From an uncultured Saprospirales bacterium (lineage in GTDB: Bacteria > Bacteroidota > Bacteroidia > Chitinophagales > Saprospiraceae): DNA of 64,000 nucleotides. The position numbers and the translations under genes are program-made. The notes beneath the pieces were generated by a model that saw only the letters and a program-made list of their open reading frames with translations, had not been told where the DNA came from and ran no database searches. Positions 40,412-58,507 of this stretch are shown one piece after another. Position 1 is the first letter of the stretch, and each line of letters opens with the position of its first letter. Location of the stretch: the NCBI GenBank assembly GCA_937926355.1, contig CALAZP010000190.1, positions 40 through 64,039 of the forward strand, given 5' to 3'.

Positions 40412-40657
40412 ATGAAGAAGTTCTCAGATTTAACCAAAATTAACGAAATGAAGTATGGTCAGCCAATGTACGGAGAGGATGATCTAAAGCAACATATGAA
40501 GGATCTTTTAGTCGCTGCATCTGGTAACGACCGGAGGGTGCTAAATGATATTGTTGATTGCTTGACTGATGATCAGATGAAAAAGTGCTATGACAAGCTG
40601 ATCAATGATTACAACTACACTGGAAAGAAAGGTGAGGTTGTAAAACCAACTATGTAA
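40412..40657 (+). CDS. Small protein, 81 aa, with a leader-like N-terminus (MKKFSDLTKINE)
   Basis: ORF bounded by a promoter-like octamer and terminator hairpins. Confidence 0.5.
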   Translation: MKKFSDLTKINEMKYGQPMYGEDDLKQHMKDLLVAASGNDRRVLNDIVDCLTDDQMKKCYDKLINDYNYTGKKGEVVKPTM

Positions 40658-40666
40658 CCCACTTCT

Positions 40667-40685
40667 CCTTGGATAGTATCCAAGG
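40667..40685 (+). terminator. Perfect 8-bp hairpin (CCTTGGAT-AGT-ATCCAAGG) without a U-tract
   Basis: Read directly; 10 nt after the stop at 40657. Confidence 0.35.
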
Positions 40686-40704
40686 ACCGACTCATAAGAG
40701 TTTC

Positions 40705-40731
40705 AGCTCCCTGGTAACTGGGAGCTTTTTT
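40705..40731 (+). terminator. Rho-independent terminator
   Basis: AGCTCCC-TGGTAACT-GGGAGCT followed by TTTTT. Confidence 0.7.
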
Positions 40732-40741
40732 GTGTTAGGTT

Positions 40742-40749
40742 GATATATA
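40742..40749 (+). promoter_or_regulatory. Intergenic octamer GATATATA (candidate promoter element)
   Basis: Context aggttGATATATAactt; 25 nt upstream of the TTG at 40775. Confidence 0.45.
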
Positions 40750-40774
40750 ACTTGTATTCTTAAACACATACATT

Positions 40775-41446
40775 TTGAAAACATTAGTCGGGATAGACTT
40801 TTCCCTTAATTCACCAGCATTCTGCATTTTGAGAGACAACCAATTCACTTGGGGATCTCTGACCAGAAGTGATCGTACAGAAGATTCCTTAAAAAAGAAT
40901 TCTAAAAAACCTTACTCCGTCTTATCTGAGGATAAATCCGAAGATTATGTCCTGATGTTTATGTCAAAGGATAAAATGCCAGACGACTACTCCGAGAGAG
41001 AAAGGATAAAAATAGATTATTTCCAAGAACTTGTCGATGTGTTTTGGTCCGAGATTGAGAACCTCTGTGGTGGAGATGACATTGTGGTAGCTATGGAAGG
41101 ACTCAGCTTTTCTTCGAACGGAAATGCTTTAATAGATATTTCCATGGCAACTGCCCTTCTAAGGAAAAAAATAGTGGACCACACAGGAAGTGATAATTTC
41201 TATGTGTATTCTCCCACATCTGTGAAAAAGTTTGCTTACAAGGGAAATGCAAAAAAACACGAACTCTATAATTCTCTAATAGAGCACAGATTTCCCGAAA
41301 CTAATCTGAGGTCATTCACTACTATTTTAGAAGAAAACAAGGATGAATGGATAACTCCTTCTGGCAACGTAAATAAGCCACTTGACGATATTATCGATTC
41401 AACTTGGATATGTTTGTTTTTGCATGACTCAATCAAAGAAGATTAA
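40775..41446 (+). CDS. RuvC-like Holliday junction resolvase (RNase H fold)
   Basis: VGIDFSLNSPA (Asp 1), VVAMEGLSFSS (Glu), SPTSVKKFAYKGNAKKHEL, DDIIDSTWICLFL (C-terminal acidic pair). TTG start is uncertain. Confidence 0.65.
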   Translation: MKTLVGIDFSLNSPAFCILRDNQFTWGSLTRSDRTEDSLKKNSKKPYSVLSEDKSEDYVLMFMSKDKMPDDYSERERIKIDYFQELVDVFWSEIENLCGGDDIVVAMEGLSFSSNGNALIDISMATALLRKKIVDHTGSDNFYVYSPTSVKKFAYKGNAKKHELYNSLIEHRFPETNLRSFTTILEENKDEWITPSGNVNKPLDDIIDSTWICLFLHDSIKED

Positions 41447-42152
41447 TATACTCATTCCTCTTGGCGGTGCTGGAAGGAGATTTACTGAGGTAGGGTATAA
41501 GCAGGTAAAGCCTTTTATAGATGTAAAAGGTGAAACTATGATTAGGTCAGTTATCAAAAACCTGAACCATAGAGATGCACACTTTATATTTGTTGTAAAT
41601 GAGGAGTATATCTCCCCTAAGGAGTTTAAGTCCCATATAGAAGATATGGAGATCTCTTATGATATTTTCTCAACCCCCACCTTAACTCAAGGACCTGCTT
41701 CAACAGTTCTAATTGCCAAAGAATCTATAAACAACGAAGTTCCCCTCATTGTTATAAACTGTGATCAAATTATCCTGGATTTCGATTTGGGTCATTTAAT
41801 GAACTTTGCAAATTCAACGGGTTGTGATGGATTGTTAGGATGCTTCCTTTCTTCCTCTAAAAAGAACAGCTATGTAAAACTTGATCCTAACGGTGAGGTT
41901 TGTGATGTAAAGGAGAAAATAGTTATTTCCAATATAGCTACGAATGGATTGCATTTCTGGAAGCATGGTGAATATTTTGTCTCCAGTGCAGAACAGATGA
42001 TAGAATCTAATGACAGATACAACAACGAATTCTATGTTGCCCCCACCTACAATTATCTCATAAAAGATGGAAAAAAAATATTGCCTTTCTTCTATAATCT
42101 TCACTTTCCAATAGGAACCCCGGAGGACCTGGAAAGATTTTTAACGGTTTAG
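41424..42152 (+). CDS. Sugar/alcohol-phosphate nucleotidyltransferase (NTP_transferase, LicC/GCD1-like)
   Basis: ILIPLGGAGRRFTEVGYKQVKPFIDVKGETMI, the G-x-G-x-R..KP loop. I chose the ATG at 41424 over the listed TTG at 41382. Confidence 0.6.
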   Translation: MTQSKKINILIPLGGAGRRFTEVGYKQVKPFIDVKGETMIRSVIKNLNHRDAHFIFVVNEEYISPKEFKSHIEDMEISYDIFSTPTLTQGPASTVLIAKESINNEVPLIVINCDQIILDFDLGHLMNFANSTGCDGLLGCFLSSSKKNSYVKLDPNGEVCDVKEKIVISNIATNGLHFWKHGEYFVSSAEQMIESNDRYNNEFYVAPTYNYLIKDGKKILPFFYNLHFPIGTPEDLERFLTV

Positions 42153-42204
42153 CTATGCTCTCGTGCCGTAAATCGAGAACGAAACTTTCAAATAATACAA
42201 AACT

Positions 42205-42420
42205 ATGAACGAAGCAAAAAACATTAATAAACCCACTAAAAAGGCATGGAGTATAGCTTTTGTTATGTGGCGTTATTTCAAGTGGATATTAATCCCTGCG
42301 TGGCTTATTTTATGCGTAAACTTCGGTGCTTTTTTAGGTAAGTGCCTTTGGTTAACAATGACATACTTTGGTGTAGAAGATAACTTTGCAAGTTTTATTG
42401 AGTGGTTGGTTTGGTTTTAA
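42205..42420 (+). CDS. Small membrane protein, 71 aa
   Basis: Hydrophobic WILIPAWLILCVNFGAFLGKCLWLTMTYF. Confidence 0.5.
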   Translation: MNEAKNINKPTKKAWSIAFVMWRYFKWILIPAWLILCVNFGAFLGKCLWLTMTYFGVEDNFASFIEWLVWF

Positions 42421-42441
42421 TGCCACATAACAATAGTGTAA

Positions 42442-42765
42442 ATGGAGGTTTTTAGAATAGAAGAAATGAAAGATGGGTGGTATGCTGGTAATTTTTCCCC
42501 GGCAGCATACCAAACAGAACAATTTGAGATTTGCTACAAAAAGCATTTTAAGGGTGAAAAATGGCCAAAACATTATCACAAGGAGGCAGACGAAATTAAT
42601 TATCTCAGATCGGGTAAAATGATAATACAAGGCAGGGAGCTGAGTGCTGGAGATATATTCATATTGAGAAAAAACGAAATTGCTGATCCTGTTTTTTTGG
42701 ATGACTGTGAAGTCTTTATTGTAAAATCTCCTTCTGTGCCTGGAGATAAATTTGTGATTGAATGA
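42442..42765 (+). CDS. Cupin-fold protein, 107 aa (NDP-sugar ketoisomerase/epimerase-like or dioxygenase-like)
   Basis: KHYHKEADEINYLRSGKMIIQG..GDIFIL cupin motifs; stop overlaps the next start (ATGA). Confidence 0.5.
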   Translation: MEVFRIEEMKDGWYAGNFSPAAYQTEQFEICYKKHFKGEKWPKHYHKEADEINYLRSGKMIIQGRELSAGDIFILRKNEIADPVFLDDCEVFIVKSPSVPGDKFVIE

Positions 42766-43997
42766 TTAGTATTTTTAAAAATAAGGATGAATTTGATATT
42801 TCTGACTATTTTGTGGTTAGGTATTATTTGGAAGCTAAAACTTCTTTGAGAGATGCCTCTTGGAATTTGGCTATCGGTCAAAGTATCGGTAACCCGACGA
42901 ATCGCAGTGAATGGGAAACTGATGAAATGTTTGAAAATCACAGTTGTTTCATTCTTGCTTCTGAACAAGATCTTAGCCAAAAAAAAGATGGTGAAGTTGA
43001 AATTGCTTTCCCCTTGGCAAACATTAATTTGGAGGAGGATGGGATATCACAGATCCTTTGCCATATAGCCGGTGGACAAGTCGATATAGAAGAGGTGAAG
43101 CAGTGTCATGTTTTGGATATTGTTCTGCCTCAAGAAGTTGAAGACTCTTTTTCTTTGAAACCTGCTTACGGTATTAGTGGATGGAGAAGATTCAATGGAG
43201 TTGATGCCAAGCCTTTTCTAGGGGGAATAGTTAAACCTAAAGTAGGCATGCCCCCGGAGGTATTGCTAGAAGCTGTTAAAGAGATGGTTTATGGAGGGGT
43301 CAACTTTATTAAAGAGGATGAGCTCCTAGCAAACCCTTCTCACTGTCCACTAGAACAAAGAGTTCCTTTAATTTCATCTTGGTTAAAAGAAAATGCTCCG
43401 GATGTGATCTATTGTTTCTGTATCAATGGTGATAGCCCATATGCTTTGGAGAGAGCAAATTTTGTTGCAAATAATGGCGGGAACGGAATCCACATAAATG
43501 TCTGGAGCGGTCTTGGGGTATATCGTGCTATAAGGAAGCAAAACCCTAACATATGGATACATTTTCAAAAAAGTGGTGATAAATTCTTTACTGACAAAAG
43601 GGCACCATTCCACATCTACTGGCCTGTGATTTGTAAAATTGCTGGATGGTCTGGTGTGGATTCTATACATGCTGGAATGATTGGAGGTTATATGAACCAG
43701 GATAATGATGAGATACGGGATACTCTAAAAGTCCTCTGGCATTACAATATAGTTCCAGCTCTCAGTTGTGGAATGCATCCTGGTCTGGTTGATTATATCA
43801 ATGAATCTATACACAGTGTGGATTGGATGGCTAATGTTGGAGGAGCTATGCATGGACATCCAATGGGAACTAGAGCTGGTGGCTTGGCAATGAAGCAAGC
43901 CATCAATAATGATTTCCAAGAAGAGGAATATGTTTGCGCCATAAAGAAATGGGGAAAAAGAACATTTTCTAAAGACCTAGATTACAGGATATTTTAG
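42762..43997 (+). CDS. RuBisCO large-subunit-like protein (form IV-type RLP)
   Basis: GGIVKPKVG, GGVNFIKEDE, NIWIHFQ, GVDSIHAGMIGGY, PALSCGMHPG, NVGGAMHGHPMGTRAGG align to the RbcL catalytic motifs. Confidence 0.85.
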   Translation: MISIFKNKDEFDISDYFVVRYYLEAKTSLRDASWNLAIGQSIGNPTNRSEWETDEMFENHSCFILASEQDLSQKKDGEVEIAFPLANINLEEDGISQILCHIAGGQVDIEEVKQCHVLDIVLPQEVEDSFSLKPAYGISGWRRFNGVDAKPFLGGIVKPKVGMPPEVLLEAVKEMVYGGVNFIKEDELLANPSHCPLEQRVPLISSWLKENAPDVIYCFCINGDSPYALERANFVANNGGNGIHINVWSGLGVYRAIRKQNPNIWIHFQKSGDKFFTDKRAPFHIYWPVICKIAGWSGVDSIHAGMIGGYMNQDNDEIRDTLKVLWHYNIVPALSCGMHPGLVDYINESIHSVDWMANVGGAMHGHPMGTRAGGLAMKQAINNDFQEEEYVCAIKKWGKRTFSKDLDYRIF

Positions 43998-43998
43998 G

Positions 43999-44478
43999 AT
44001 GAGACTAATATCACACCGGGGAAATATAAAGGGGCCAATACCATCAAGAGAGAACAACCTTGACTACATACAAGAAGCTCTTGATCTTGGTTATGATGTG
44101 GAGATAGATGTTTGGATATCTGGATCTTCACTTTATTTAGGACACGATTCCCCAAATTCTAAGGTCTCCTTAGATTGGCTTATGGAGAGATCAGACAACC
44201 TTTGGATCCACTGCAAAAACATCTCTGCTCTTGTGTATCTAAAGGAGTATGTTGAATTCAATGTATTTTGGCATGAACAAGACAGAATAACTCTTACTTC
44301 TAAGTCTTTCATTTGGGCTTTCCCTGGAAATCAGCCCATAAATAAAAGTATCGCAGTTCTTCCTGAGATCTATGATGATCCTGTTAACGGATGCTGTGGA
44401 ATTTGCTCAGATTATATAGAGAAGTACAAATTTTTAAGTACAAATGAAAGTAGCTCTTTTACTTCCTGGACAGATTAG
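43999..44478 (+). CDS. Compact glycerophosphodiester phosphodiesterase (GDPD)-like protein
   Basis: ISHRGN, RENN, DVEIDVW, LGHD, LWIHCKN, GICSDY match the GDPD N- and C-terminal signatures in only 159 aa. Confidence 0.55.
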   Translation: MRLISHRGNIKGPIPSRENNLDYIQEALDLGYDVEIDVWISGSSLYLGHDSPNSKVSLDWLMERSDNLWIHCKNISALVYLKEYVEFNVFWHEQDRITLTSKSFIWAFPGNQPINKSIAVLPEIYDDPVNGCCGICSDYIEKYKFLSTNESSSFTSWTD

Positions 44479-45226
44479 GGAGGCAAAAGAAACCTTTCCC
44501 TACTTAAAAGGCAGAATTTTGGATAGGTTTAAGCCAGATGTTTTTATATCTACCTGGAGCCCATCTGAAACTATAAAAAATTCCCTTCATGCAGAAACAC
44601 ACTACCTTACTGACACCCTAAGCACCGACACTTTAGCAAGTCTTTATTCTCCAGTAACCATAAAGATGGACAAGTTTGAATCCCCGGGTATATCAAGGAT
44701 AGTAGATAAAGCGTGGTCGTTTGAAAGCTATGGCCCACAAACTGGTGAGATAAATCCAGTTTCGGTTTTCTTGATGTGGTATAAGATAAGACAGTCCTTT
44801 CTCCTTTTAGAGGAGCATGAAAACCTAACTGGTGAGAGATATGATTATATTATAAAAGGAAGAATGGACATAAAAATCCACAACGACATCCCTTTGGATC
44901 CAAATCTAAAAACTATATGTATTCCTCCCGGTTTTGATTGGAAGGGCGGGGTTAATGATATTTTTGCATGGGGAGGTAGGGAAGCAATGGAACACTACTC
45001 AAAACTCTACGAGATGATGGAAGAATACATTTTCTCTGGTGTTTACTTTCACCCCGAGACACTTTTAAAGCATCATATACTTAATTCTGAATTTAACCTT
45101 TCCCGCCCTATGGTAAAGGTATCCTTAAGAGGTAAGAGAGTGTGGGAAATTGAATCCACGGGTGAACGAATGGATAAAAAAAATTATGAATATATACAAT
45201 CTAAGGGAAACATTTGGGACACTTAG
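44444..45226 (+). CDS. Hypothetical protein, 260 aa; tentatively a WavE-like/GT-A-type glycosyl- or phosphotransferase
   Basis: Pattern VALLLPGQIR...DVFISTWS...YDYIIKGRMD...NDIFAWGG..M..Y. Confidence 0.3.
   Translation: MKVALLLPGQIREAKETFPYLKGRILDRFKPDVFISTWSPSETIKNSLHAETHYLTDTLSTDTLASLYSPVTIKMDKFESPGISRIVDKAWSFESYGPQTGEINPVSVFLMWYKIRQSFLLLEEHENLTGERYDYIIKGRMDIKIHNDIPLDPNLKTICIPPGFDWKGGVNDIFAWGGREAMEHYSKLYEMMEEYIFSGVYFHPETLLKHHILNSEFNLSRPMVKVSLRGKRVWEIESTGERMDKKNYEYIQSKGNIWDT
45189..45196 (+). promoter_or_regulatory. Variant octamer AATATATA(CAA), candidate promoter for the SSB gene
   Basis: tgAATATATAcaatc inside the 3' end of the upstream gene; 67 nt upstream of the ATG at 45264. Confidence 0.2.
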
Positions 45227-45263
45227 AGATTAAATAAAGGATTTAAAAATAATTAAAGGAATC

Positions 45264-46214
45264 ATGAGTAACTTAGACATTTTCAATTTGGATGCGGAAG
45301 CATTCGTAACGAAAGCAAAAAAGGAGAATTCAGAGGGAACAGAATTTTACAAACCATATCCGGAAAACGGAAAGGATGGAGTTTATAAATCGCTGATCCG
45401 TTTTCTTCCTAACCACGTCGATCCGACGAAATCAAAAATCCACAAGTACTACGTTTATCTAAACGATCCAACAACAGGAGATGGCTTCCCAGTTGACTGT
45501 CCGTCAACAGTAGGAAAAAAATCGGTACTTAAGGATATGTTCTGGAAGCTGAAAAATTCGCATTCAGCTGCAGATCAAGAGCTATCAAGAAGTTTTTCTA
45601 GAAAGGAAGACTATTACTCTCTCATCCAAATTGTACAGGATAAGCACAATCCTGAACTTGAGGGTAAAATTATGATCTTCAAATTTGGACGTAAGCTAAA
45701 TGATATGCTCGAAGCACAGCTTAAGCCTGAGTATGGTGATTCGTGCAACCCTTACGACCTTTTCGAGGGTAAACTTTTCTCAGTTCACACAAGAAAAGTT
45801 GGTGAGTGGAACAACTACGATCTTTGTTCATTTGTTGGAGATAGAACTCCTATCGAAATCAATGGCAAAAAGATGGAGAAAAATCAGGATGACATGAATG
45901 CAATCATGGAGTACCTTAAAACAGGTCCTGACAATCTCACCCAGTTTGAATATAAAGATTGGGACGATAACACTACTCAAAGGGTTATGAATGTGATTAA
46001 AAAAACAGTTCCAGATGGAAGGCTAGTTAATGAGGTTTTAGGAGGTGCAAACCAGACTTCGACCCCATCGTCATCTAGCTCAACGAATGACTTTTACAAC
46101 GAGGCTTCATCAACTAAAGTAGGCTCTGAACCTGCAAAGGAAGATAAAGGCATTAGTCAGCCATCAGCACCTGAAACATCTTCGTCTCTAGACGACCTAT
46201 ACGCAGATCTCTAA
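45264..46214 (+). CDS. gp32: Single-stranded DNA-binding protein, T4 gp32-like
   Basis: YKSLIRFLPN, EGKIMIFKFGRKLNDML, Ser-rich linker and acidic tail SSLDDLYADL as in gp32. Confidence 0.8.
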   Translation: MSNLDIFNLDAEAFVTKAKKENSEGTEFYKPYPENGKDGVYKSLIRFLPNHVDPTKSKIHKYYVYLNDPTTGDGFPVDCPSTVGKKSVLKDMFWKLKNSHSAADQELSRSFSRKEDYYSLIQIVQDKHNPELEGKIMIFKFGRKLNDMLEAQLKPEYGDSCNPYDLFEGKLFSVHTRKVGEWNNYDLCSFVGDRTPIEINGKKMEKNQDDMNAIMEYLKTGPDNLTQFEYKDWDDNTTQRVMNVIKKTVPDGRLVNEVLGGANQTSTPSSSSSTNDFYNEASSTKVGSEPAKEDKGISQPSAPETSSSLDDLYADL

Positions 46215-46227
46215 ATCTACCTTGAAT

Positions 46228-49570: not shown

Positions 49571-49588
49571 GGATAAATGAGGAAGAAA

Positions 49589-50077
49589 ATGGATAACATA
49601 AAAGATTTTCAAAGTTTTCTCAACGAGAATATTGAAAGAAGAGAACCATATTCTGCTACTGAGTGGATCAAGCAGAAAAGGAGAAGTATAGAGGCAGAAA
49701 CCGGCGCTGAGAAAATCTACCAAATGACTTATGATGAAGGGGGTGCTTTGCAGAGACTTGTAAAAGGTGCTGTTGAAGGGCTTCGAAACCTGGGTCAGGG
49801 AATTGCTGATCTTTTCGATTCTGGTAAGGCAGCAAGCATGGATATTGAGGGTCTTAGTAAAAATAAAGATCAGGTTTTATCTAGATGGGGAGATTCAATT
49901 AGAGCTTCTGGAAAAAACAAAAGGGGAGAATATGAAACCTTTTACAGAGACGCTATCCGAAAAGGTAAGTCAACTTTCGGTAAAGACTTTGACATCAACA
50001 ACCCACAGGGAAGAGACCAGCAACTTTACAGGGATTATGTCTTTTCTGCCACAGATTATTTTGATTTAGGAAGATGA
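49589..50077 (+). CDS. Hypothetical protein with leader MDNIKDFQSFLNE
   Basis: Start moved to the second ATG: the listed 49577 lies only 6 nt after the octamer, and gaggaag precedes 49589. The stop overlaps the next start (ATGA). Confidence 0.5.
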   Translation: MDNIKDFQSFLNENIERREPYSATEWIKQKRRSIEAETGAEKIYQMTYDEGGALQRLVKGAVEGLRNLGQGIADLFDSGKAASMDIEGLSKNKDQVLSRWGDSIRASGKNKRGEYETFYRDAIRKGKSTFGKDFDINNPQGRDQQLYRDYVFSATDYFDLGR

Positions 50078-50985
50078 GAAACGTGCTAAAATTCGGAGAT
50101 TACGTTTCGCTGTTCGAAGGTGGAGCTGCGATAAAGGAATCTAGGAGGATAAAGGAGAGTGAGGTTCCAAAAACCATGGAGTCCATCAAAGAAATTCTTT
50201 TCCCTCTGCTTGGTGGTGGGGAGGTAGACAAGGAGTATCTTATCATTGGTAGCATTGGTAAAAAGAAAGATCAAAATGACACATCTGGTGATATCGATCT
50301 TGGTATAGATAAAAAGTTCCTCTCTAAGAAGCTGGGTGTTTCTGAAGATGATGTTCTCGGAGCTTTATACAAAAATCTTTCGGAGACCTTACACAACAAA
50401 CTTGGCTTTGTACCAGATATGAAATTGATGAGAGGAATTAACGTTCTCTCGATTGGTTGGCCTATAGAGGGTGACGCTGAAAATGGTATAGTTCAATTAG
50501 ATCTTATTCCAATTTCTGATATGGAATGGGCTAAGTTTATATTCTATTCCCCAGATTACAGAAAGAACGAAAGTAAATACAAGTCGGCTCACAGAAACTG
50601 GCTTTTCCAAGCAATTCTTTCAGCACTAAAGGAAGTAATTTCTAAGGACGAAAATGGTGAACTGGAGGATTTTTATTCTTATGCCCTGAGGTTAAGCGAT
50701 GGGATTTACAAAAATAAGAAGTCTTTTAGGGGTGCTACAAAAAGACTCAAAAGTCCTAAAACGGTTAAAGGAAAAAGCACTTTGGTAACTAGAGATCCAG
50801 ACGAGTTTGTTGAGATGATGTTTGGTGGTGGGATTAAGAAGGAGGATCTAAAATCTTTTGAGGATGCTTGGAAGTTGGTTTCTTCTCCAAACTTTGTCCA
50901 TGCTGACAAGAGGGACGAGATCAGGGACGATCTGGAAAGATATTTAACAAACGGTGGATTTGAAATCCCCACCGAGATCAAATAA
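50074..50985 (+). CDS. Pol-beta-superfamily nucleotidyltransferase-like protein
   Basis: GSIGKKKDQNDTSGDIDLGID fits G[SG]-x(9-13)-D-x-D; third acidic candidate in VQLDLIP. Confidence 0.55.
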   Translation: MRNVLKFGDYVSLFEGGAAIKESRRIKESEVPKTMESIKEILFPLLGGGEVDKEYLIIGSIGKKKDQNDTSGDIDLGIDKKFLSKKLGVSEDDVLGALYKNLSETLHNKLGFVPDMKLMRGINVLSIGWPIEGDAENGIVQLDLIPISDMEWAKFIFYSPDYRKNESKYKSAHRNWLFQAILSALKEVISKDENGELEDFYSYALRLSDGIYKNKKSFRGATKRLKSPKTVKGKSTLVTRDPDEFVEMMFGGGIKKEDLKSFEDAWKLVSSPNFVHADKRDEIRDDLERYLTNGGFEIPTEIK

Positions 50986-51441: not shown

Positions 51442-53355
51442 ATGGCTGGGATAAATCACTTATATGACATTTACAACAAAAAAGGATCTGACTTTGTCAA
51501 TCAGCTTTTTAATCGTTATGTAACCATCAACGAAAAGATGGATGGCTCGGCTTTTTCTTTTGAAAGAGATAAGGAATCTGGAAATTTCCGGTTTTATAGG
51601 AGGGATCAAAGAAATCCAATAACTTTAGTGGACAGGACTCTCATGAAATATTACGAGAAGCCAATCCAGTATATCGAATCTCTTCCTCCAAACATACTTG
51701 AAAAAATACCTAGAGGATTGAGATTCGGGCTGGAATATTTTTCAAACACTAAACCTGTAGAGATCTCCTACGATAGATTGCCAAAGAATAACTTGATTCT
51801 TTCTTATATCCACAAGATGGGTACTGGAGGTAAGATAGAAAGCACTATTCAGGATAAGGGGGAATTAGACAATTGGGCAGATCTGATTGGGGTTGAAAGA
51901 CCACCAATTGTTTTTCAGGGAGTTCTAGACGAGGACCAGAAATCTGAACTTATGGAGTTTTTGAACACCCCGTTCAAGGATCTTGTCGAAAGATTCAAAA
52001 CTCAATCTTTTGTTAGGTTTGTTATTAAGACCCTGAACCCAGAGTTAACCAAAACTGCTCTCAACGATGACCTAGATAAGGACGTCGAGGGAATAGTTTT
52101 TAGGTTTGGCGAGCCCGATGGTGATAGTGATACCGTTTTAGCTAAAATGGTAGATCCAATATTCACCGAGATTGCTAAGCAAAAGTTTGCTGACAAAAAG
52201 AGCAAAAAGCCTTCTGATTTTCTAGGTATTACGCTGCTCGACGTAATGAATTTCATTTTGGAGAAAGATCTTTCCGAATTTGAAGTTGAAGGCGAGTCTG
52301 AGGACGAGAGATACATTTCCTTTATAGGAGACGTTTTTGTCAAGTTCCTTGATGAATACGAGGAAAAGTATAAGGGTACTGATTTCGAAGAACCAGATTA
52401 TCTAAAAAGAGAAGAATTTAGGTTAAACAAGGAAAAAATTAAGGATAGAAGAGTTCTTAAGTATGTTGAAAAAGACGACTCGTTCGAATCTCTATTCAAA
52501 CTCATTCTTAATTCCTTTAGAAAAATAAAAACCAGAGCTGGTGGAATAATCACAGCTGGTATGAAGGACCAAATGAATCTTTTGATCAAAGACATTAAGG
52601 ACTACATCAAAAAACCAGAGAAGAACGTAAACGAATCTAGGTTTATTAGCTTCGGTGAATTTAGGAAGGAGAACACCCCCTCTGTAGAATACCTACAGGA
52701 GGAGGATGATTCGGATACAAGTGATGATCCTTTTTTCTCATACCGTGAATTCATCAGCAAACTTGAGACTATTGATAACGAGGAGTTGCCAAACGAGGTA
52801 GAGATTCTTAAAGAGGACGATACCGAGGAAAGAAAGCCGGTAAATGTCATAATGGGTAGATTTCAGCCCTTCCACCAGGGGCACCTCAAGATGGCAAAGG
52901 ATCTTATGGAGAAAAACGATTTGCCTTCATTCGTTGTTGTAGTTTATCCTGGCCACAACAAGTCTGGAAAATCCCCATTTGATGAAGAATCTATCAAAAG
53001 ATACATGAATGCGATAGTTGCCAACAATGAAGAGATAGAAGGCTATGTTCTTGCTACTCGGGGACTTCTTGGTTCTGCCATTGCAAGACTAATAGATATG
53101 GGATATGATCCTAAGTTAATTGGTGCAGGCCCCGACCGAATAGATGACTACTCTAAGCAGATAGACTATGTTAAGATGTCTGATATAAAAGACAAAATAA
53201 GCGATGACCTAAGCATAGTAGAAACCCCAAGAGTAACGAGCGGTACCGAAGTTAGGCAAGCTATGAAAGACCAAGATTTTGCCAAGTTTAAAAAGATGGT
53301 TCCAAAAGAGGTCTCAAACCTCTATAATGACCTCATTACAAGCGTCAGGGACTGA
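51442..53355 (+). CDS. Fusion protein: N-terminal covalent nucleotidyltransferase (RNA/DNA ligase-like) domain plus C-terminal NMN adenylyltransferase-like (HxGH cytidylyltransferase fold) domain
   Basis: Ligase motifs: I INEKMDGS, III RFGLEYF, IV VEGIVFRF, V VLAKMVDP. C-terminal: IMGRFQPFHQGH and TSGTEVRQAM. Confidence 0.65.
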   Translation: MAGINHLYDIYNKKGSDFVNQLFNRYVTINEKMDGSAFSFERDKESGNFRFYRRDQRNPITLVDRTLMKYYEKPIQYIESLPPNILEKIPRGLRFGLEYFSNTKPVEISYDRLPKNNLILSYIHKMGTGGKIESTIQDKGELDNWADLIGVERPPIVFQGVLDEDQKSELMEFLNTPFKDLVERFKTQSFVRFVIKTLNPELTKTALNDDLDKDVEGIVFRFGEPDGDSDTVLAKMVDPIFTEIAKQKFADKKSKKPSDFLGITLLDVMNFILEKDLSEFEVEGESEDERYISFIGDVFVKFLDEYEEKYKGTDFEEPDYLKREEFRLNKEKIKDRRVLKYVEKDDSFESLFKLILNSFRKIKTRAGGIITAGMKDQMNLLIKDIKDYIKKPEKNVNESRFISFGEFRKENTPSVEYLQEEDDSDTSDDPFFSYREFISKLETIDNEELPNEVEILKEDDTEERKPVNVIMGRFQPFHQGHLKMAKDLMEKNDLPSFVVVVYPGHNKSGKSPFDEESIKRYMNAIVANNEEIEGYVLATRGLLGSAIARLIDMGYDPKLIGAGPDRIDDYSKQIDYVKMSDIKDKISDDLSIVETPRVTSGTEVRQAMKDQDFAKFKKMVPKEVSNLYNDLITSVRD

Positions 53356-53361
53356 TATATA
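53354..53361 (+). promoter_or_regulatory. Octamer GATATATA overlapping the upstream stop codon (candidate promoter element)
   Basis: Context ggacTGATATATAaaaa; 19 nt upstream of the GTG at 53381. Confidence 0.45.
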
Positions 53362-53380
53362 AAAAAATACAAATAAACCA

Positions 53381-53920
53381 GTGGATAAAAGAATACAGAG
53401 CTTCTCCGACTTCCTAAAGGCTTCTTCGATTAACGAGGGAGATGGATTTGGGACCTATCCTTTCTTATTAGTAAAGGATGGTGACATTTACAACTACCTT
53501 TTCCAATTAGAACTTGAGAATGGTTCTCAGAAAGGATTTATGTTGGTGGTTGGCAAATATTCTCAGTATGAGACAATGGAGGGACCTAAAAACTCTTACG
53601 CAGTTCTAAATATAAACGAGATAGCTCCTGAAATTATAGAAGATATTGCTATCAAGAAATCCGAAATACCCGATCTAAATGATGCTAAGTTTAATCTTAA
53701 GGACAATGTCCTAAGCAGATTTTTAGAGCAGATATCTAAGGCTTTATTAAATTATCTTGAGAAAAATCCAAAAGTAATTCGTATATTTGACGAAATGCAG
53801 GGTAATATGGATATCGAAAACTATGAAGAAATGGTAAAATCAGTTTTACTTTCCTTCTTAGGTCCAGAATGGGCAATCCAGGAAGGATCTCACAAGGGAA
53901 CATTCATAATCAGTAGATAA
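53381..53920 (+). CDS. Hypothetical protein with leader (M)DKRIQSFSDFLKASSINE
   Basis: GTG start; N-terminus paralogous to the leaders at 49589 and 58507. Confidence 0.5.
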   Translation: MDKRIQSFSDFLKASSINEGDGFGTYPFLLVKDGDIYNYLFQLELENGSQKGFMLVVGKYSQYETMEGPKNSYAVLNINEIAPEIIEDIAIKKSEIPDLNDAKFNLKDNVLSRFLEQISKALLNYLEKNPKVIRIFDEMQGNMDIENYEEMVKSVLLSFLGPEWAIQEGSHKGTFIISR

Positions 53921-53951
53921 TCCAAATTGAAACATTTACTCTTAACAATCC

Positions 53952-53959
53952 TATAAATA
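53952..53959 (+). promoter_or_regulatory. TATAAATA box (identical to the T4 late-promoter consensus)
   Basis: cTATAAATAagg; 18 nt upstream of the ATG at 53978. Confidence 0.35.
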
Positions 53960-53977
53960 AGGAAAATTTAAACAACT

Positions 53978-54154
53978 ATGGAAAATTTCGATCGAATCAA
54001 AGAAGTTATGGAAGCTGCAGAAGCTGACGTAGCAAAGTTTGTTGAAAAAGGCAATAAGGCAGCTGGAACAAGAGTTCGCCAAGCCATGCAAGAAGTTAAG
54101 AAGCTTGCTCAACAAGTAAGGTTGGATGTTCAGGAGATAAAGAACAACTCTTAA
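53978..54154 (+). CDS. Histone H1-like / Hc1-like small basic DNA-binding protein (Bacteroidota-type), 58 aa
   Basis: My translation: MENFDRIKEVMEAAEADVAKFVEKGNKAAGTRVRQAMQEVKKLAQQVRLDVQEIKNNS*. The core KFVEKGNKAAG.R.R matches the family. Absent from the ORF track, which lists only an antisense ORF here. Confidence 0.6.
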   Translation: MENFDRIKEVMEAAEADVAKFVEKGNKAAGTRVRQAMQEVKKLAQQVRLDVQEIKNNS

Positions 54155-54178
54155 GAAACCAAACCACAAACAGATATT

Positions 54179-54204
54179 AGGCAGCCCTTCAGGCTGCCTT
54201 TTCT
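54179..54204 (+). terminator. Rho-independent terminator
   Basis: AGGCAGCC-CTTCA-GGCTGCCT followed by TTTCT. Confidence 0.75.
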
Positions 54205-54243
54205 GTGTACATGGAAATGGAAATGGAATAAAACCACCTAATC

Positions 54244-54251
54244 GATATATA
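54244..54251 (+). promoter_or_regulatory. Intergenic octamer GATATATA (candidate promoter element)
   Basis: Context aatcGATATATAagat; 19 nt upstream of the ATG at 54271. Confidence 0.45.
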
Positions 54252-54270
54252 AGATGTAAATTTTATACAC

Positions 54271-54477
54271 ATGGGATATTACGTAGCAAAAGTTAGTTTT
54301 GAATCAACTGAAACCAAAAGAAATGGTGATCCAGTAATTCACAAATCAGAATTTCTAGTTGCAGCTGAGTCTGTGCTAGAGGTTGAGACGAAAGTAGCGG
54401 AGTTCCTTGAGGGAACCACTGGATTCTTTGAAACCACACAGATTTCAAAATCCAAAATCGAAGCAGTTATAGAATAA
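54271..54477 (+). CDS. Hypothetical protein, 68 aa
   Basis: ORF after a promoter-like octamer. Confidence 0.45.
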   Translation: MGYYVAKVSFESTETKRNGDPVIHKSEFLVAAESVLEVETKVAEFLEGTTGFFETTQISKSKIEAVIE

Positions 54478-54773
54478 TGGCAAATACCGGCAGCTATATT
54501 CCCCCACAATCCCCCATTGCTATCCAACCTGGAGACAAGGGATTTGAGATAGTTGGGAAGAGTTACAATAGATGGCTTTGGACATTCCCCGATTGGAAGA
54601 AGGGAAAGAAGAAGATAATTAATCCTGCAACTAACTGGGAATTGAACGCAAAGCCAATGAGTCCTGCAGAGATAAAGAAAAAGATGAAAGGTCTTTATCT
54701 ACAGGAGGATAACGATAAAAAAGTAGAGGAGAGCATGAAAATCATTACTCCCTACGAAAAATATAAGATTTGA
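54477..54773 (+). CDS. Hypothetical protein, 98 aa
   Basis: ORF; TAATG overlap with the upstream gene. Confidence 0.45.
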   Translation: MANTGSYIPPQSPIAIQPGDKGFEIVGKSYNRWLWTFPDWKKGKKKIINPATNWELNAKPMSPAEIKKKMKGLYLQEDNDKKVEESMKIITPYEKYKI

Positions 54774-54774
54774 A

Positions 54775-55212
54775 ATGCCCTCGGTTAGTAAAGCACAGCA
54801 AGCAATTATGGGTCAAGCTTGGGCTCTAAGACAAAACGAGCTAAAGCTCAAGGACATCAATGCTAAATACAGAAAAGAAATCGAAAAGATTGCTTTTGGT
54901 TACAAGGACAAGGACGGAAAGTTTATTGCACCTATGACTGACAAGGAACTTAAAAAGTTTGCAAAAACAAAATCTAAGGATTTACCCGAGAACGTAAAAG
55001 ACGGTAAACCGGTGAATGAGGAAAAATTCACTCCGGGGATAACCAGTTCTAAGGGAGTTCCATCCTTTACACCTAGTATTACTTTTGGTGGAGAAATTAA
55101 ACCCATTATACCTTATCTAGACACGGATGCAAAAAAAGAGAAGCCTGGGAAGAAAAACCTAGAGAATCTCAAGGATTATAGGGACTGGATAAAGGAAAGA
55201 AAGAAGTCATGA
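54775..55212 (+). CDS. Hypothetical Lys-rich protein, 145 aa
   Basis: ORF; N-terminal SKAQQAIMGQAWA motif. Confidence 0.45.
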   Translation: MPSVSKAQQAIMGQAWALRQNELKLKDINAKYRKEIEKIAFGYKDKDGKFIAPMTDKELKKFAKTKSKDLPENVKDGKPVNEEKFTPGITSSKGVPSFTPSITFGGEIKPIIPYLDTDAKKEKPGKKNLENLKDYRDWIKERKKS

Positions 55213-55619
55213 TAAATCTTTTTGAGTTTGATAAGTATGATCCTAAATCTGAATATCTTGAGGATGAAAGGAGAAACATAGATCTGGATAAGATAAGAAA
55301 GTCTGATGCTTATATGGATATTTTAGACCTCGGTTTTTCCGATGAAACCTCGGATCAACAGGAACTAAACAATACACTCAAATTCAAAAGAAAGAATCAG
55401 CCTGAGGTAAAGGGATATGGTGAGGTATTTTACACTATACACCCAACAGGTGTAGTTCGTCGCTATAACCCAATCAAATCAAATGAAACCCCAGAGGGAC
55501 AAGGAAATACTATTAGGACTTATCCATCACCTTTCAGAAACGGTAAGGAATATAAAAAGGCATTAAGATACCTCTTTAATTATCTACGGAGAAAGGAATT
55601 AAGGAAAGACTATAGATAA
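55209..55619 (+). CDS. Hypothetical protein, 136 aa
   Basis: ORF; ATGA overlap with the upstream gene. Confidence 0.45.
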   Translation: MINLFEFDKYDPKSEYLEDERRNIDLDKIRKSDAYMDILDLGFSDETSDQQELNNTLKFKRKNQPEVKGYGEVFYTIHPTGVVRRYNPIKSNETPEGQGNTIRTYPSPFRNGKEYKKALRYLFNYLRRKELRKDYR

Positions 55620-55647
55620 ATATAGAAACAACTTAAAGAATACTAAA

Positions 55648-55875
55648 ATGGGATGTGGATGCAATAAAGGGTCAAGGAGTGAGACAAGCACTCAAACTAC
55701 AAAGCAATACGATGACCTTTCTGGTAAGTTTATACTTGACACACAGGGTAACAAATTTCTTGTAACTTCGCCAATATATGATGCTTATAAGGATATTGTT
55801 GGCTACACTGTCAAGGACGAGCAGGGAAACTCTCTTAGAATATTTGCAAAGAATGTTCAAAAAATACTAGATTAA
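55648..55875 (+). CDS. Hypothetical protein, 75 aa (N-terminal MGCGCNKG)
   Basis: ORF. Confidence 0.4.
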   Translation: MGCGCNKGSRSETSTQTTKQYDDLSGKFILDTQGNKFLVTSPIYDAYKDIVGYTVKDEQGNSLRIFAKNVQKILD

Positions 55876-55876
55876 A

Positions 55877-56371
55877 ATGGATTCAATGTACTATCCAACT
55901 GGAAATTCAACTAACGGACGAACGCTAGTTTGTTTGTGCTGCGAGGATGTTCCGGTAATGGAAGACCAGGAAACCCCAGATGCTATGGAACTTAAGATCA
56001 AGGAATGGTTGGACGAAAACGACTATTGCGTTGAAAAATGGCAAATGGACGAAGAAATGAAAAATTGCGGATGTGAAGGGTATGAACTCCAAGAAATGGA
56101 TGGAGGAGCACCTGCACCAGCTGGAGATGGTGGTGGAGCATTCGCTACATTAGGAACTACCCAGGGGATGGGAAATGTTGAAGCACCTTCGTCTGGCGGT
56201 ACTAATGCAGATTTTTATAGCGGAGCAGTTGGATCCGGCGATAAGTTCCCTTCACTTACGGTAGGAACCCCGGCTGCTAAAGGGGGTTCTGGTAAAAAGA
56301 AGAAAAAGAAAGATAAGGTTGTTAAAAGCTTCGAGGATTTCAAGAAAATGATGAAGTCTTTGCAGAAATAA
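55877..56371 (+). CDS. Hypothetical protein with Cys pairs, a Gly/Ala-rich linker and a poly-Lys tract
   Basis: CLCCED, CGCEGY, GGAPAPAGDGGGA, GKKKKKKDK; C-terminal KSFEDFKKMM. Confidence 0.45.
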   Translation: MDSMYYPTGNSTNGRTLVCLCCEDVPVMEDQETPDAMELKIKEWLDENDYCVEKWQMDEEMKNCGCEGYELQEMDGGAPAPAGDGGGAFATLGTTQGMGNVEAPSSGGTNADFYSGAVGSGDKFPSLTVGTPAAKGGSGKKKKKKDKVVKSFEDFKKMMKSLQK

Positions 56372-56395
56372 GACAAAAAGTCATAACTGTTTGCT

Positions 56396-56425
56396 AAAAG
56401 GTGCCAAAAAGGCACCTTTTTCTTT
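56396..56425 (+). terminator. Rho-independent terminator (A-tract/U-tract symmetric, potentially bidirectional)
   Basis: AAAAGGTGCC-AAAAA-GGCACCTTTT followed by TCTTT. Confidence 0.8.
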
Positions 56426-56476
56426 GCTTTTTATTAGTGGAACAGGATTTGAAATATTAGTAATAAAAAACAAATT

Positions 56477-56833
56477 ATGAACAGAACAACTTTTTACAGT
56501 CCTCTAGAAATGATGGAAAGGATTTTCCACAACACAAATCCTGTTATTCAAAGTAGAAACTACTTTGTGGACGAGAGGGATGGAGAGTATGCTTTAGAAA
56601 TACCGGTCCCTGGTTTTTCTAAAAAAGACATCTCGGTTGATGTCGAAGGAAACTTTTTGGTCATAAGTGGTGAAGATAATGAATCATATTGGACAGATGA
56701 CTTCACGAAGAAATTCAAACTTCCCAATGAAGCTGATCCAGAATTGATTAAAGCGAAGATAGAAGACGGTGTACTTAAGGTTTCAGTGGGTAAGAAGAAA
56801 GAGTCGATGCCTAAGAAGATTAAAATCTCATAA
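56477..56833 (+). CDS. Small heat-shock protein (Hsp20/alpha-crystallin family)
   Basis: YALEIPVPGFSKKDISVDVEGNFLVISGE ... F.KKFKLPNEADPELIKAKIEDGVLKVSV. Confidence 0.85.
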   Translation: MNRTTFYSPLEMMERIFHNTNPVIQSRNYFVDERDGEYALEIPVPGFSKKDISVDVEGNFLVISGEDNESYWTDDFTKKFKLPNEADPELIKAKIEDGVLKVSVGKKKESMPKKIKIS

Positions 56834-56865
56834 GTTCCGAAATTTTTCTTACTTTTATAAATATT

Positions 56866-56896
56866 AAAGCTCGATCACTAAAGATTGAGCTTTTTT
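56866..56896 (+). terminator. Rho-independent terminator
   Basis: AAAGCTCGAT-loop-ATTGAGCTTT (one G-U pair) followed by TTT. Confidence 0.6.
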
Positions 56897-56899
56897 ATT

Positions 56900-57115
56900 A
56901 TGTCAAGGGAAAAAGAAATATTCGAAAGATTCGCAATTGAGATTGCACAAGAAATCATTAAGAAGGAAGAAAATCCAGACTATGAAATAATTCTGGATAG
57001 AAAGTCTGTTATAGGTAAACTTTCATCTATCATGGGACAAGAATATCCAGAAACAGCCTCTCAGTTTGATAAGAGAATAAATGATCACCTAAAAAGATTA
57101 AGGAGAAATCTATAA
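56900..57115 (+). CDS. Hypothetical protein, 71 aa
   Basis: Start moved to the ATG at 56900; the listed TTG at 56885 lies inside the terminator stem. Confidence 0.45.
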   Translation: MSREKEIFERFAIEIAQEIIKKEENPDYEIILDRKSVIGKLSSIMGQEYPETASQFDKRINDHLKRLRRNL

Positions 57116-57501
57116 TGGAAAGGCTTATACAGGAAGATTACTTAGATAGCCCTTGGAAGATGACCGTAATATGTATACTGCTAAACCAAACCACTAACCA
57201 GCAGGTAAGAAAAATTTTAGATTCCCTTTTTGATCTAATACAATCCCCAGAGAAATGCTCTGGATTGAACCCAGACCAGATCTATCCAGTAATTAAAGGA
57301 ACTGGCTTTGGAAACGTAAAATCTAGGAGGATAATCTCTATGAGTCAAAAATGGATCGACGGATTTAAAGACGTCCAAGAATTACCCGGGGTTGGAAAAT
57401 ACGCAAAGGAGTCCTGGGAAATTTTTGTGAATGGAAAAACAAATTTTACTCCAAGTGACAAAAAATTAAGGATGTACCTAGAGGGATTGAATAGTCTCTA
57501 A
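57115..57501 (+). CDS. HhH-GPD DNA glycosylase, MBD4 glycosylase-domain-like
   Basis: ICILLNQTTNQQV, ELPGVGKYAKESWEIF (HhH, compare MBD4 GIGKYGNDSYRIF), downstream PSDKKL candidate catalytic Asp. Confidence 0.6.
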   Translation: MERLIQEDYLDSPWKMTVICILLNQTTNQQVRKILDSLFDLIQSPEKCSGLNPDQIYPVIKGTGFGNVKSRRIISMSQKWIDGFKDVQELPGVGKYAKESWEIFVNGKTNFTPSDKKLRMYLEGLNSL

Positions 57502-58170
57502 TAGAGCTGGATGTGGTGGACAGCTCAATCTATCAATTCTTACATTGCTATGAGACCAAAGACCTTGACCCCCTAATAAAGCATTTTCTGACAGTTCAAA
57601 TCCACCAAAATCACCAAACTTCAGGATTTCTTTCTGAAGACCTCTTTTAAGATCTATTTCATATTTTTCGCTAAGGTATTTAAGTAAACCCTTTAGTGAT
57701 TCTATTTGAGCTTTTGAATAACTATGAAAATACTTACTGCCCCTGAAAGGTGATTCAAGCTCTGTAACTTGATTTTTACTTATCTTAACGTGACTTGATG
57801 TATAGAAATCTCCATCCTCTGTTTTTATAAGAGGACCGTAGTTACATATGTCGATGCCTATACTCTTTTGGTTTAGGAAGGTGTTATTTTTTGCTTTTAT
57901 GAATAGATGGTGTGACCACATAGATTCGTCAAAAGCTCTATAAACTACCCCATCATACTTTTTATCTTTCCCGTCTGGAGATATACCACCAATTACAAAT
58001 GCACTAGAGGATCTTATTTTGTTGGTAGAATTTTTCCTGTCTCTTCCCCGGTATTCAATCAGCCAATCGGGCCTATAATGTCCAGACGAATCCCTTAGGA
58101 AAATGGAATCCTTCGGGTGTGGTTGTTGATAATATGCACTTTCGGAAAGTGGATGATCAATATATTCCAA
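57478..58170 (-). CDS. Peptidoglycan amidase (Amidase_2/PGRP fold) endolysin
   Basis: SHHLFIKAKN..NQKSIGIDICNYG and LWSHSNV...RLSCPP (His/Cys Zn ligands). The first Zn-ligand position is ambiguous (IFLRDSSGH). Confidence 0.6.
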   Translation of the reverse strand: MEYIDHPLSESAYYQQPHPKDSIFLRDSSGHYRPDWLIEYRGRDRKNSTNKIRSSSAFVIGGISPDGKDKKYDGVVYRAFDESMWSHHLFIKAKNNTFLNQKSIGIDICNYGPLIKTEDGDFYTSSHVKISKNQVTELESPFRGSKYFHSYSKAQIESLKGLLKYLSEKYEIDLKRGLQKEILKFGDFGGFELSENALLGGQGLWSHSNVRIDRLSCPPHPALLETIQSL

Positions 58171-58180
58171 TCCTTGATAC

Positions 58181-58507
58181 TTATTTTTCTTCGGAGGTTT
58201 TGGCTGTTGGTGAAAGTTCCTCGTGTATTCTCTTTTTCAAATACTTGATAACATCCTTAGGTGCCTCTCCATTTTTAACCATATTCGTGAATTCCTCCTC
58301 CTCTGCTAACGTATCTAAATAGTTGTAAAGATCCGTACTTTGAAACATTGAATCCACTACCTGTGGGGTTTGTGTATAAGCGGGCCTATAGTTTCTTGAG
58401 TTAACATTATCCTTGTACCATTCACCAGGAACAACCACACTACCAGGTGCTGCTGAAATGTAATATTCATTAAGGAAATTCTCGAAACTTTTGATCCTGC
58501 TATCCAT
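58181..58507 (-). CDS. Hypothetical protein with leader MDSRIKSFENFLNE
   Basis: Start moved to Met13 of the listed ORF, because the octamer (58518-58525) lies inside the longer version. Leader is paralogous to 49589 and 53381. Confidence 0.5.
   Translation of the reverse strand: MDSRIKSFENFLNEYYISAAPGSVVVPGEWYKDNVNSRNYRPAYTQTPQVVDSMFQSTDLYNYLDTLAEEEEFTNMVKNGEAPKDVIKYLKKRIHEELSPTAKTSEEK

Follow-up and report, generated by a model that had tools for sequence, protein, structure and literature searches.

A 64 kb stretch of phage DNA (64,000 nucleotides of contig CALAZP010000190.1, called the window here) raises the question of why several proteins with little else in common begin with nearly the same short peptide. 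The answer proposed is that the peptide is, with fair likelihood, a capsid-targeting leader of the T4 type, removable by a protease and with a consensus of its own, in a remote lineage of jumbo phages. Obtained directly here are the leaders with their statistics and pattern of conservation, the genes for protease, scaffold, and capsid protein in the same genome, and the site motif and promoter-like box that these genes have in common; every computationally testable part of the original prediction, which had been made from the letters of the window, was supported.

To our knowledge, most work on capsid-targeting leaders has concerned T4 and its close relatives. T4 leaders mark proteins that are injected with the DNA (e.g., the anti-restriction protein IPI*), and they are used in engineering to package foreign proteins. 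In T4 the capsid targeting sequence (CTS) reads MKTYQEFIAE (PMC8442874); its suppressor analysis assigned targeting mainly to residues 4 and 7 (Tyr and Phe) and processing to residues 8 and 10 (Ile and Glu), and gp21, the T4 prohead protease, has itself a site at LIE-9 (PMC9026906). All the characterized proteases of the gp21 family cleave after Glu in a short motif, and they are reported to be active inside the prohead (PMC5694885).

Leader Peptides and Their Enrichment

Three strong and two looser versions of the peptide had been reported from the window, each at the N-terminus of an open reading frame (ORF), and all five are present where they had been placed (lengths in amino acids, aa):

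49589..49627, plus strand: canonical leader MDNIKDFQSFLNE of the 162-aa ORF 49589-50077, predicted cleavage after Glu13
53381..53437, plus strand: leader MDKRIQSFSDFLKASSINE, i.e., (M)DKRIQSFSDFLKASSINE, with a GTG start and a 5-residue spacer, predicted cleavage after Glu19
58466..58507, minus strand: canonical leader MDSRIKSFENFLNE of the 108-aa ORF 58181-58507
40412..40447, plus strand: probable leader variant MKKFSDLTKINE, with Leu in place of the second aromatic, of the 81-aa ORF 40412-40657
50074..50118, plus strand: possible leader variant MRNVLKFGDYVSLFE of the 303-aa ORF 50074-50985

Regarding their sequence, the three strong leaders (49589, 53381, and 58507) follow the pattern I-[KQ]-x-F-x-x-F-L-(0-5 aa)-phi-N-E, where phi is a hydrophobic residue; the ORFs behind them had been called otherwise unrelated, and indeed their BLASTP similarity is limited to the first ~30 aa, with E values of at least 0.02. 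The likeness to the T4 CTS also holds, with two conserved aromatics, a hydrophobic P3, and an invariant Glu that match the T4 targeting and processing positions, and so does the hydrophobic-x-Glu ending known as the consensus of the T4 prohead protease, which here is mostly [LIV]-N-E. The leaders of the window are 12-19 aa long (up to ~21 aa elsewhere in the genome), amphipathic, and acidic at the end; they contain no hydrophobic stretch of the Sec, Tat, or lipoprotein signal peptide kind (an h-region of at least 7-10 residues preceded by a basic n-region). At two of the sites the longest ORF begins further upstream, with an ATG at 49577 and a TTG at 58543; 49589 and 58507 are taken as the real starts because a promoter-like box sits in the extensions, and because the ORFs of several relatives begin at the leader Met.

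As for their frequency, the pattern [KQR][STD]F..F[LIV] occurs nine times in the six frames of the 64 kb, and only three of these occurrences are at ORF starts, namely the three strong leaders. A broader count was made on a genome portion of ~122 kb (126 genes), reconstructed by a walk that used homologue searches and relatives from IMG/VR. There, the strict pattern [FY]xx[FW]-(0-7)-[LIVMA]NE falls within the first 40 aa in 10 of the 126 genes, against an expectation of 0.19 ± 0.43 (maximum 3) from 2000 shuffles of residues 2-40 of each protein with composition kept; none of 785 internal 40-aa windows contains it. With the looser variants included, ~17 genes of the reconstruction have a leader or a leader-like peptide. 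One strict-pattern match, in ORF 39291, is found solely at residues 23-33 and is left as doubtful. The leaders are thus confirmed as a real feature, far above chance.

Conservation in Orthologues

Relatives at 68-97% identity retain the leaders of all five window genes. In the 49589 family (alignment A3; 13 sequences, 23-57% identity), M1, F7, F10, and E13 are nearly invariant, and the ~40 residues after the leader are hypervariable, with insertions and deletions. In the 53381 family (alignment A2; 22 sequences), F11 is nearly invariant and E19 fully so, and directly behind E19 the conserved fold begins, at DGFGT; the AlphaFold model of the 53381 protein (pLDDT 84, pTM 0.80) gives residues 1-20 low confidence and places them outside the globular domain. 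In a 303-aa family of the head-proximal region (alignment A1), F10, E15, and S16 are invariant. Taken over the three alignments, there is little or no variation at the terminal Glu and the -3 aromatic, and the flanking sequence is variable.

As for the remaining window genes, relatives of 58507 have ORFs that begin precisely at this Met and retain IKSFE[ND]FL[NL]E, orthologues of 40412 read MKKFSELTQLNE, and those of 50074 retain aromatic-x-x-aromatic-[VI]-x-LFE/GGAAIK (here and below, a slash marks the predicted cut). Since conservation in each family is highest at the motif residues, among orthologues of 23-60% identity, purifying selection on the peptide is indicated. The DNA of the leaders is not conserved, as identity at third codon positions is 12-38% between leaders, and apart from an 8-bp box there is no DNA similarity upstream of them; the leaders differ at synonymous sites, so it is the peptide that is conserved rather than the DNA.

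Protease, Scaffold, and Capsid Protein

A T4-type leader calls for a gp21-like prohead protease in the same genome, and one was found ~23-25 kb upstream of the window; it is the first of two head genes that lie ~21-25 kb upstream, on contigs that are 99.9% identical to the window and overlap it:

L137 3519-5525: 668-aa protease-scaffold protein, the first ~200 residues of which are a predicted prohead serine protease (Pfam, PHROG, and structure alignment)

The protease part scores 31.1 bits on Pfam Peptidase_S77 (cut-off 27; 2e-7), 25.9 bits on Peptidase_S80, and 3e-35 on phrog_207, and its catalytic His (GELDHP) and Ser (SISSRAAG) align to the T4 gp21 structure 5jbl. The rest of the protein consists of thirteen 14-residue tandem repeats (..I-x-Y-S-E-Y-L-A-E-N-L-D-K-G..) and an acidic tail; judging by the annotation of Tenacibaculum phage PTm1, a cultured relative, the repeat part is a scaffold joined to the protease. 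The gene directly downstream encodes a 573-aa major capsid protein of the Gp23 family (2.3e-41), similar to T4 gp23 itself (phmmer E 1.7e-9).

The cleavage motif of the leaders had been expected in the capsid and scaffold genes as well, and it is found there, at conserved positions of the capsid propeptide and in many copies in the protease-scaffold. Per 1000 aa, the protease-scaffold has 10.5 [LIVM]-N-E, the capsid protein 5.2, and an 897-aa protein of the head module 4.5, with a genome mean of 1.6; the protease-scaffold has seven phi-N-E sites, or 6.4 times the genome density. Kept in three diverged genomes are the protease sites LLNE/N, near the N-terminus, and CVNE/S, just past the protease domain; the scaffold-tail sites NLNE/S, NINE/A, A[IL]NE, and SLNE/S; and the capsid propeptide site KYCHYHSLNE/SAGAY at residue 45, the equivalent place in the capsid propeptide of LR756500 reading ..YAHYHELYE/N.

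Leaders are also found close to these genes, in the coiled-coil, scaffold-like neighbors of the capsid gene of 366, 297, 89, and 226 aa, and in a 263-aa nucleotidyltransferase-like protein of the head module. The idea that the leader is a copy of the scaffold repeat was rejected: a position-specific scoring matrix built from the 13 repeats (I-x-Y-S-E-Y-L-A-E) scores the leaders no higher than background, so that the resemblance is one of class only.

Two further observations were made on the head genes. A 497-aa homing endonuclease (L137 7362-8855; phrog_3339, 1e-95) separates the capsid gene from the next head gene; the relatives L139 and L140 lack it at this place, and PTm1 has one after its capsid gene. 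In the window, a stretch of the small, Cys-rich, Lys-tailed ORF 55877-56371 (plus strand) at 56126-56257 encodes 44 residues that are 40% identical (E 2e-6) to residues 43-99 of the capsid protein, including a 9-residue identity, GSGDKFPSL; the matched region is the N-arm of the capsid protein, starting at the predicted maturation site, and the ORF 55877 protein may be a capsid-arm mimic or an assembly factor.

Promoter-like Box

The 8-bp box upstream of the leaders is the octamer GATATATA; four of the five leader genes of the window have their own copy:

40383..40390, plus strand: promoter-like box GATATATA, 21 nt upstream of the 40412 leader gene, kept in the relative L150
49563..49570, plus strand: promoter-like box GATATATA, 18 nt upstream of the 49589 leader gene
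53354..53361, plus strand: promoter-like box GATATATA, upstream of the 53381 leader gene
58518..58525, minus strand: promoter-like box GATATATA, upstream of the 58507 leader gene

The fifth gene, 50074, is probably transcribed from the box of the 49589 gene, because its start overlaps the stop of that gene. In total, the window has 10 copies (3.45 expected), all on the coding strand and 10-51 nt ahead of a gene start, at positions 4007, 7380, 20312, 40383, 40742, 49563, 53354, 54244, 58518-58525 (minus strand), and 60018; these copies have no conserved -35-like partner. In the 122 kb reconstruction, 22 of 23 copies are upstream of genes, and the box precedes 11 of the 17 leader genes and 9 of the 109 others (Fisher p = 6.5e-7). 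It is also found ahead of the protease-scaffold gene, the gene of the 897-aa head-module protein, and a baseplate wedge gene, and it is kept at orthologous positions in relatives down to ~41% protein identity. The box is probably a single-element promoter specific for the phage and similar to T4 late promoters; the term late is used because structural genes lie behind copies of it. One copy within the protease gene (codons K-I-Y-K) is kept in three genomes, ~60 nt ahead of the in-frame Met233, and suggests a nested scaffold-only product, comparable to lambda C/Nu3 and herpesvirus UL26/UL26.5.

Internal and C-terminal Copies

Copies of the motif had been noticed at two places away from the N-termini, with different outcomes:

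52627..52719, plus strand: internal leader-like element VNE/SRFISFGEFRKENTPSVEYLQE/EDD (it reads VNE/SRFISFGEFRKE...YLQE/E), in the interdomain linker of ORF 51442-53355
56324..56353, plus strand: C-terminal KSFEDFKKMM of ORF 55877-56371, resembling the aromatic half of the leader

The first is present and conserved in four relatives. In ORF 51442-53355 (plus strand), an RNA-ligase domain (aa 26-235) is fused to a cytidylyltransferase domain (aa ~453-633), with the element in the acidic linker between them. The same architecture is found in the 897-aa head-module protein (L137 760-3453), which contains the conserved internal element LLNE/SRVLSFSDFSSRSPISINE/E; this protein has an Ala/Gly-rich, tape-measure-like center (phrog_28, 4e-7) and an acidic C-terminal half that begins with the internal leader, and it is a candidate ejection protein. 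Both internal elements have the appearance of a cleavage site with a second leader behind it, an arrangement that suggests fusion proteins cut into separately retained pieces.

As for KSFEDFKKMM, the peptide itself is present, but the phi-x-Glu cleavage site is missing, and this copy is probably not a leader and unrelated to targeting. A further candidate, TINE/KMDG at the N-terminus of ORF 51442, was rejected as a leader; it is read as the context of ligase motif I (KxDG).

Cargo Proteins

The proteins that follow the three strong leaders are, with the predicted mature part in each case:

49589..50077, plus strand: cargo gene 1, mature part of 149 aa and 17 kDa, isoelectric point (pI) 8.7, with 18 remote homologues
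53381..53920, plus strand: cargo gene 2, mature part of 160 aa and 18 kDa, pI 4.7, an alpha/beta domain in the model
58181..58507, minus strand: cargo gene 3, mature part of 94 aa and 10.8 kDa, pI 4.9, adjoining an Amidase_2 gene

None of the five window cargo proteins has a match in Pfam or PHROGs, and a Foldseek comparison of the 53381 AlphaFold model with the PDB gave nothing significant (best E 0.013, TM 0.36). The domains of the window cargo have no recognizable function, and an anti-restriction role, as in T4, is pure conjecture. 50074 was considered as a paralogue of the leader-bearing 263-aa nucleotidyltransferase, and this was discarded, as the two have no significant similarity.

Enzymes can be recognized among the leader-bearing proteins of the genome. 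An adenylate kinase encoded just beyond the window end (ADK, 3.9e-37) has the leader MDKVRNFENFIAINE/R, conserved across many relatives, and a RimK-like ATP-grasp ligase (4.4e-32) has a leader that reads ..ALNFESFLNE/A.

Phage Genome and Its Relatives

The window has ~38% GC and is coding almost wholly on one strand. It comprises tail and baseplate genes at 1-39 kb (gp5-like hub, gp13-like neck protein, and gp6-like wedge) and replication and nucleotide-metabolism genes at 39-64 kb (gp32-like single-stranded DNA-binding protein, primase, helicase, family-B polymerase, and ribonucleotide reductase). ENA metagenome contigs match it at 99.9% identity; the ENA contig k127_229847 (115.8 kb) reaches ~70 kb further upstream than the window, and the abutting contigs NODE_16 (70.3 kb) and NODE_1 (112.4 kb) of another assembly bring the phage genome to at least 183 kb. 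It should be noted that distances upstream of the window are approximate, because a 69-bp tandem repeat at the window start made the contig overlap ambiguous. This repeat (window 1-137) encodes the peptide repeat ..DLGVPDR.Y.., at the C-terminus of a 799-aa protein that runs into the window.

A DNA search of INPHARED with the 40-60 kb part of the window returned no relative. The capsid protein is 44-45% identical to those of LR756500 and Lak, and the lineage is best read as an uncultured jumbo myovirus among remote jumbo phages related to Lak and other huge phages of Bacteroidota. Homologues of the conserved 297-aa leader protein number at least 176 at 90% clustering and lie on contigs as long as 349 kb, and from this number the leader-bearing subclade is judged to be widespread. 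A Bacteroidota host is indicated by the Hc1 and DUF4494 genes and by the hosts of the relatives, namely Prevotella, Tenacibaculum, and Flavobacterium.

Other genes of this genome include those for the histone-like Hc1 protein, the DUF4494 protein, and an HSP20 small heat-shock protein, at window 53978-54154, 54271-54477, and 56477-56833, respectively. The 411-aa ORF at window 42762-43997 (plus strand) is a RuBisCO-like protein (RuBisCO large chain catalytic domain 7.6e-31, N-terminal domain 3.3e-5), and its neighbors are an NTP-transferase gene and further sugar or nucleotide genes. The family-B DNA polymerase seems to come in two pieces, a 470-aa exonuclease/N-terminal part at window 58568-59980 (plus strand) and a 381-aa ORF with the K..NS.YG motif, ~17 kb downstream (L006 16407-17552).

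Interpretation and Rival Explanations

The steps of the proposed capsid-targeting mechanism, i.e., docking, cleavage, packaging, ejection, and any effector role, are inferred. Leader-tagged proteins would be expressed from promoters like those of the head and baseplate genes, and the leader aromatics (F-x-x-F) would dock them on the scaffold core inside the assembling prohead. The gp21/S77-type protease, fused to the repeat scaffold, would then be activated in the prohead and cut after the invariant Glu of [LIV]-x-E, mostly [LIV]-N-E; the cut would release the mature protein within the head, and its ejection along with the DNA would follow later. The same protease is predicted to trim the capsid propeptide and to chop the scaffold.

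Several observations weigh against this explanation. The predicted mature window cargo has pI values of 4.7, 4.9, 5.7, 6.1, and 8.7, so that it is mostly acidic or near neutral, unlike the basic internal proteins of T4. The adenylate kinase and the RimK-like ligase are housekeeping-type enzymes whose use inside a virion is not obvious, and the gene of the former lacks the GATATATA box and comes directly after the ribonucleotide reductase genes. The leader genes of the window are mostly in the replication and nucleotide-metabolism region, outside the head module. Regarding the peptide itself, the distance from the aromatic pair to the Glu varies by 0-8 residues, so that a single fixed recognition register fails; the predicted site of the capsid protein does not align column for column to T4 E65, and the leaders go undetected by the scaffold-repeat profile. 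Finally, leaders are absent from the relatives examined, namely the cultured phages pT24 (first 50 kb) and PTm1 (75 kb) and LR756500 (head region), and the system seems confined to a subclade known from metagenomes alone.

An explanation that keeps the protease and drops the targeting is that the peptide is a mere substrate site or propeptide, used for instance to activate or inactivate an enzyme, and that any targeting resides elsewhere in the proteins. The invariant Glu and the hydrophobic P3 are found also at the capsid and scaffold sites, and an enzyme cargo, such as the adenylate kinase, might be controlled through trimming of its N-terminus; both aromatics, however, are as conserved as the cleavage residues, and the conserved scaffold-tail sites (NLNE/S, NINE/A, SLNE/S) do without the aromatic pair. 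In addition, the equivalent aromatics of T4 are demonstrated targeting determinants (PMC9026906), and gp21-type proteases are reported to act within the prohead (PMC5694885), so that their substrates would need to be inside anyway. This explanation is improbable.

Equally improbable is that the peptide is a short linear motif that binds a hub other than the capsid, such as a sliding clamp or another replisome component, a chaperone, or a degradation adaptor. The window copies are mostly among replication and nucleotide-metabolism genes, the cargo includes the adenylate kinase, nucleotidyltransferase-like proteins, and the RNA ligase fusion, and F-x-x-F bears a loose likeness to clamp-binding peptides. 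Yet the polymerase, helicase, primase, gp32-like single-stranded DNA-binding protein, and ribonucleotide reductase have no leader; clamp-binding (PIP-like) peptides are expected on such replisome proteins, typically at a terminus of the polymerase or its partners. Copies of the motif lie most densely around the capsid gene and are present also within head-module proteins and the capsid propeptide, the invariant terminal Glu and variable spacer suit a cleavage site and not a clamp motif, and the promoter box is common to leader and head genes.

Common descent, or the shuffling of an N-terminal module by paralogy or recombination, would explain the likeness of the leaders with no present function. 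Phage genomes are mosaic, and the internal copies, which in ORF 51442 and the 897-aa protein fall at domain junctions, resemble fossil gene fusions; the third-position identity between leaders is at the random level, which excludes a recent exchange of DNA, and the purifying selection on the motif residues adds to making this a very unlikely explanation. Finally, an artefact of composition or translation, by which AT-rich codons (K, N, F, I, and E) are favored near starts in a 38% GC genome, is effectively refuted: the leader is rich in such residues, but the composition-keeping shuffle of the first 40 residues gives 0.19 against the 10 observed, the residues are position specific and invariant in orthologues, and conserved internal copies exist.

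Capsid targeting remains the preferred explanation, and it has consequences of a practical kind: the leaders supply a sequence rule for listing candidate packaged or injected proteins in uncultured genomes, and they point to unexpected cargo, a nucleotide kinase and an ATP-grasp ligase, with a possible role at the start of infection. More speculative, and rather doubtful, is the extension of this idea to the entire lineage, in which a portable tag of 12-20 aa may direct a large, evolvable group of proteins to the capsid for co-injection, ~10-15% of the genes, including the adenylate kinase, the RimK-type ATP-grasp ligase, and nucleotidyltransferases, with internal tags that let fusions be cut into separately retained pieces. 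If this were true, the virus would bring a ready-made set of enzymes with it, and the proteins that uncultured phages inject could be read straight from sequence.

Comparison with Known Systems

The closest parallel is T4. When the T4 CTS and the gp23 site are set against the canonical leaders F-x-x-F-L-N-E, the register is the same, i.e., aromatic (-6), aromatic (-3), [LI] (-2), and Glu (0); in the alignment gp23 is cut at AFGSFLTE65/A66, which agrees with the 65-residue offset between its full-length and mature forms. Both phages have a short N-terminal extension common to otherwise unrelated proteins, homologous S77-type proteases and gp23-type capsid proteins, and the same type of site in the capsid propeptide and scaffold; the LLNE near the N-terminus of the protease parallels the LIE-9 of T4 gp21, and propeptide length is variable in both, 10-19 aa in T4 compared with the range given above for this genome. 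As to whether leader and CTS share descent, a 10-aa peptide is too short for a homology comparison.

The differences from T4 are the strong preference for Asn at P2, the possible spacer of 0-8 residues before the site, the internal copies at domain junctions, and the scatter of at least ~17 tagged genes over at least 122 kb. In addition, the leader genes have the GATATATA box, and the cargo includes enzymes and acidic proteins, whereas the T4 internal proteins (IPI-III) are small, highly basic, and associated with DNA, a description that the window cargo with its pI values does not fit. T4 Alt, an ADP-ribosyltransferase, is a precedent for enzyme cargo, being packaged in the head and processed after Glu by the prohead protease, at ITE-6 and LTE-619 (PMC5694885), although its propeptide departs from the CTS consensus; the cargo of this phage yielded no ADP-ribosyltransferase.

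As for other jumbo phages, phiKZ and SPN3US have many head-internal or ejection proteins that are cut after Glu by a gp21-related S80 protease (gp175/gp245), at the motifs S/A/G-x-E and A-x-E (PMC5694885), and the protease described here also scores on Peptidase_S80, the family of these enzymes. Their propeptides are long and heterogeneous, with a small P3 and no common short leader reported; the leaders of this phage are short and alike, with Leu, Ile, or Val at P3 as in T4, and they show neither the [S/A/G]-x-Glu sites nor the long, heterogeneous propeptides of S80-type processing. PTm1, with 31% capsid protein identity, has no F-x-x-F...N-E leaders at the N-termini in the 75 kb covered, unlike this phage; as here, it has a fused "prohead core scaffolding protein and protease" immediately ahead of the capsid gene, and [LIV]-N-E sites in the N-terminal region of the capsid protein (TINE/N and IINE/S) and in the scaffold tail.

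In conclusion, on the evidence of the sequence, the logic of the T4 leader, with its own consensus, is seen in a lineage of uncultured jumbo phages that is remote and common in the environment. The grammar of aromatic-x-x-aromatic followed by hydrophobic-x-Glu is thus suggested to be an old property of gp21-type head assembly, and the leader would represent, next to the CTS of T4, a second natural tag for protein delivery by phage capsids.

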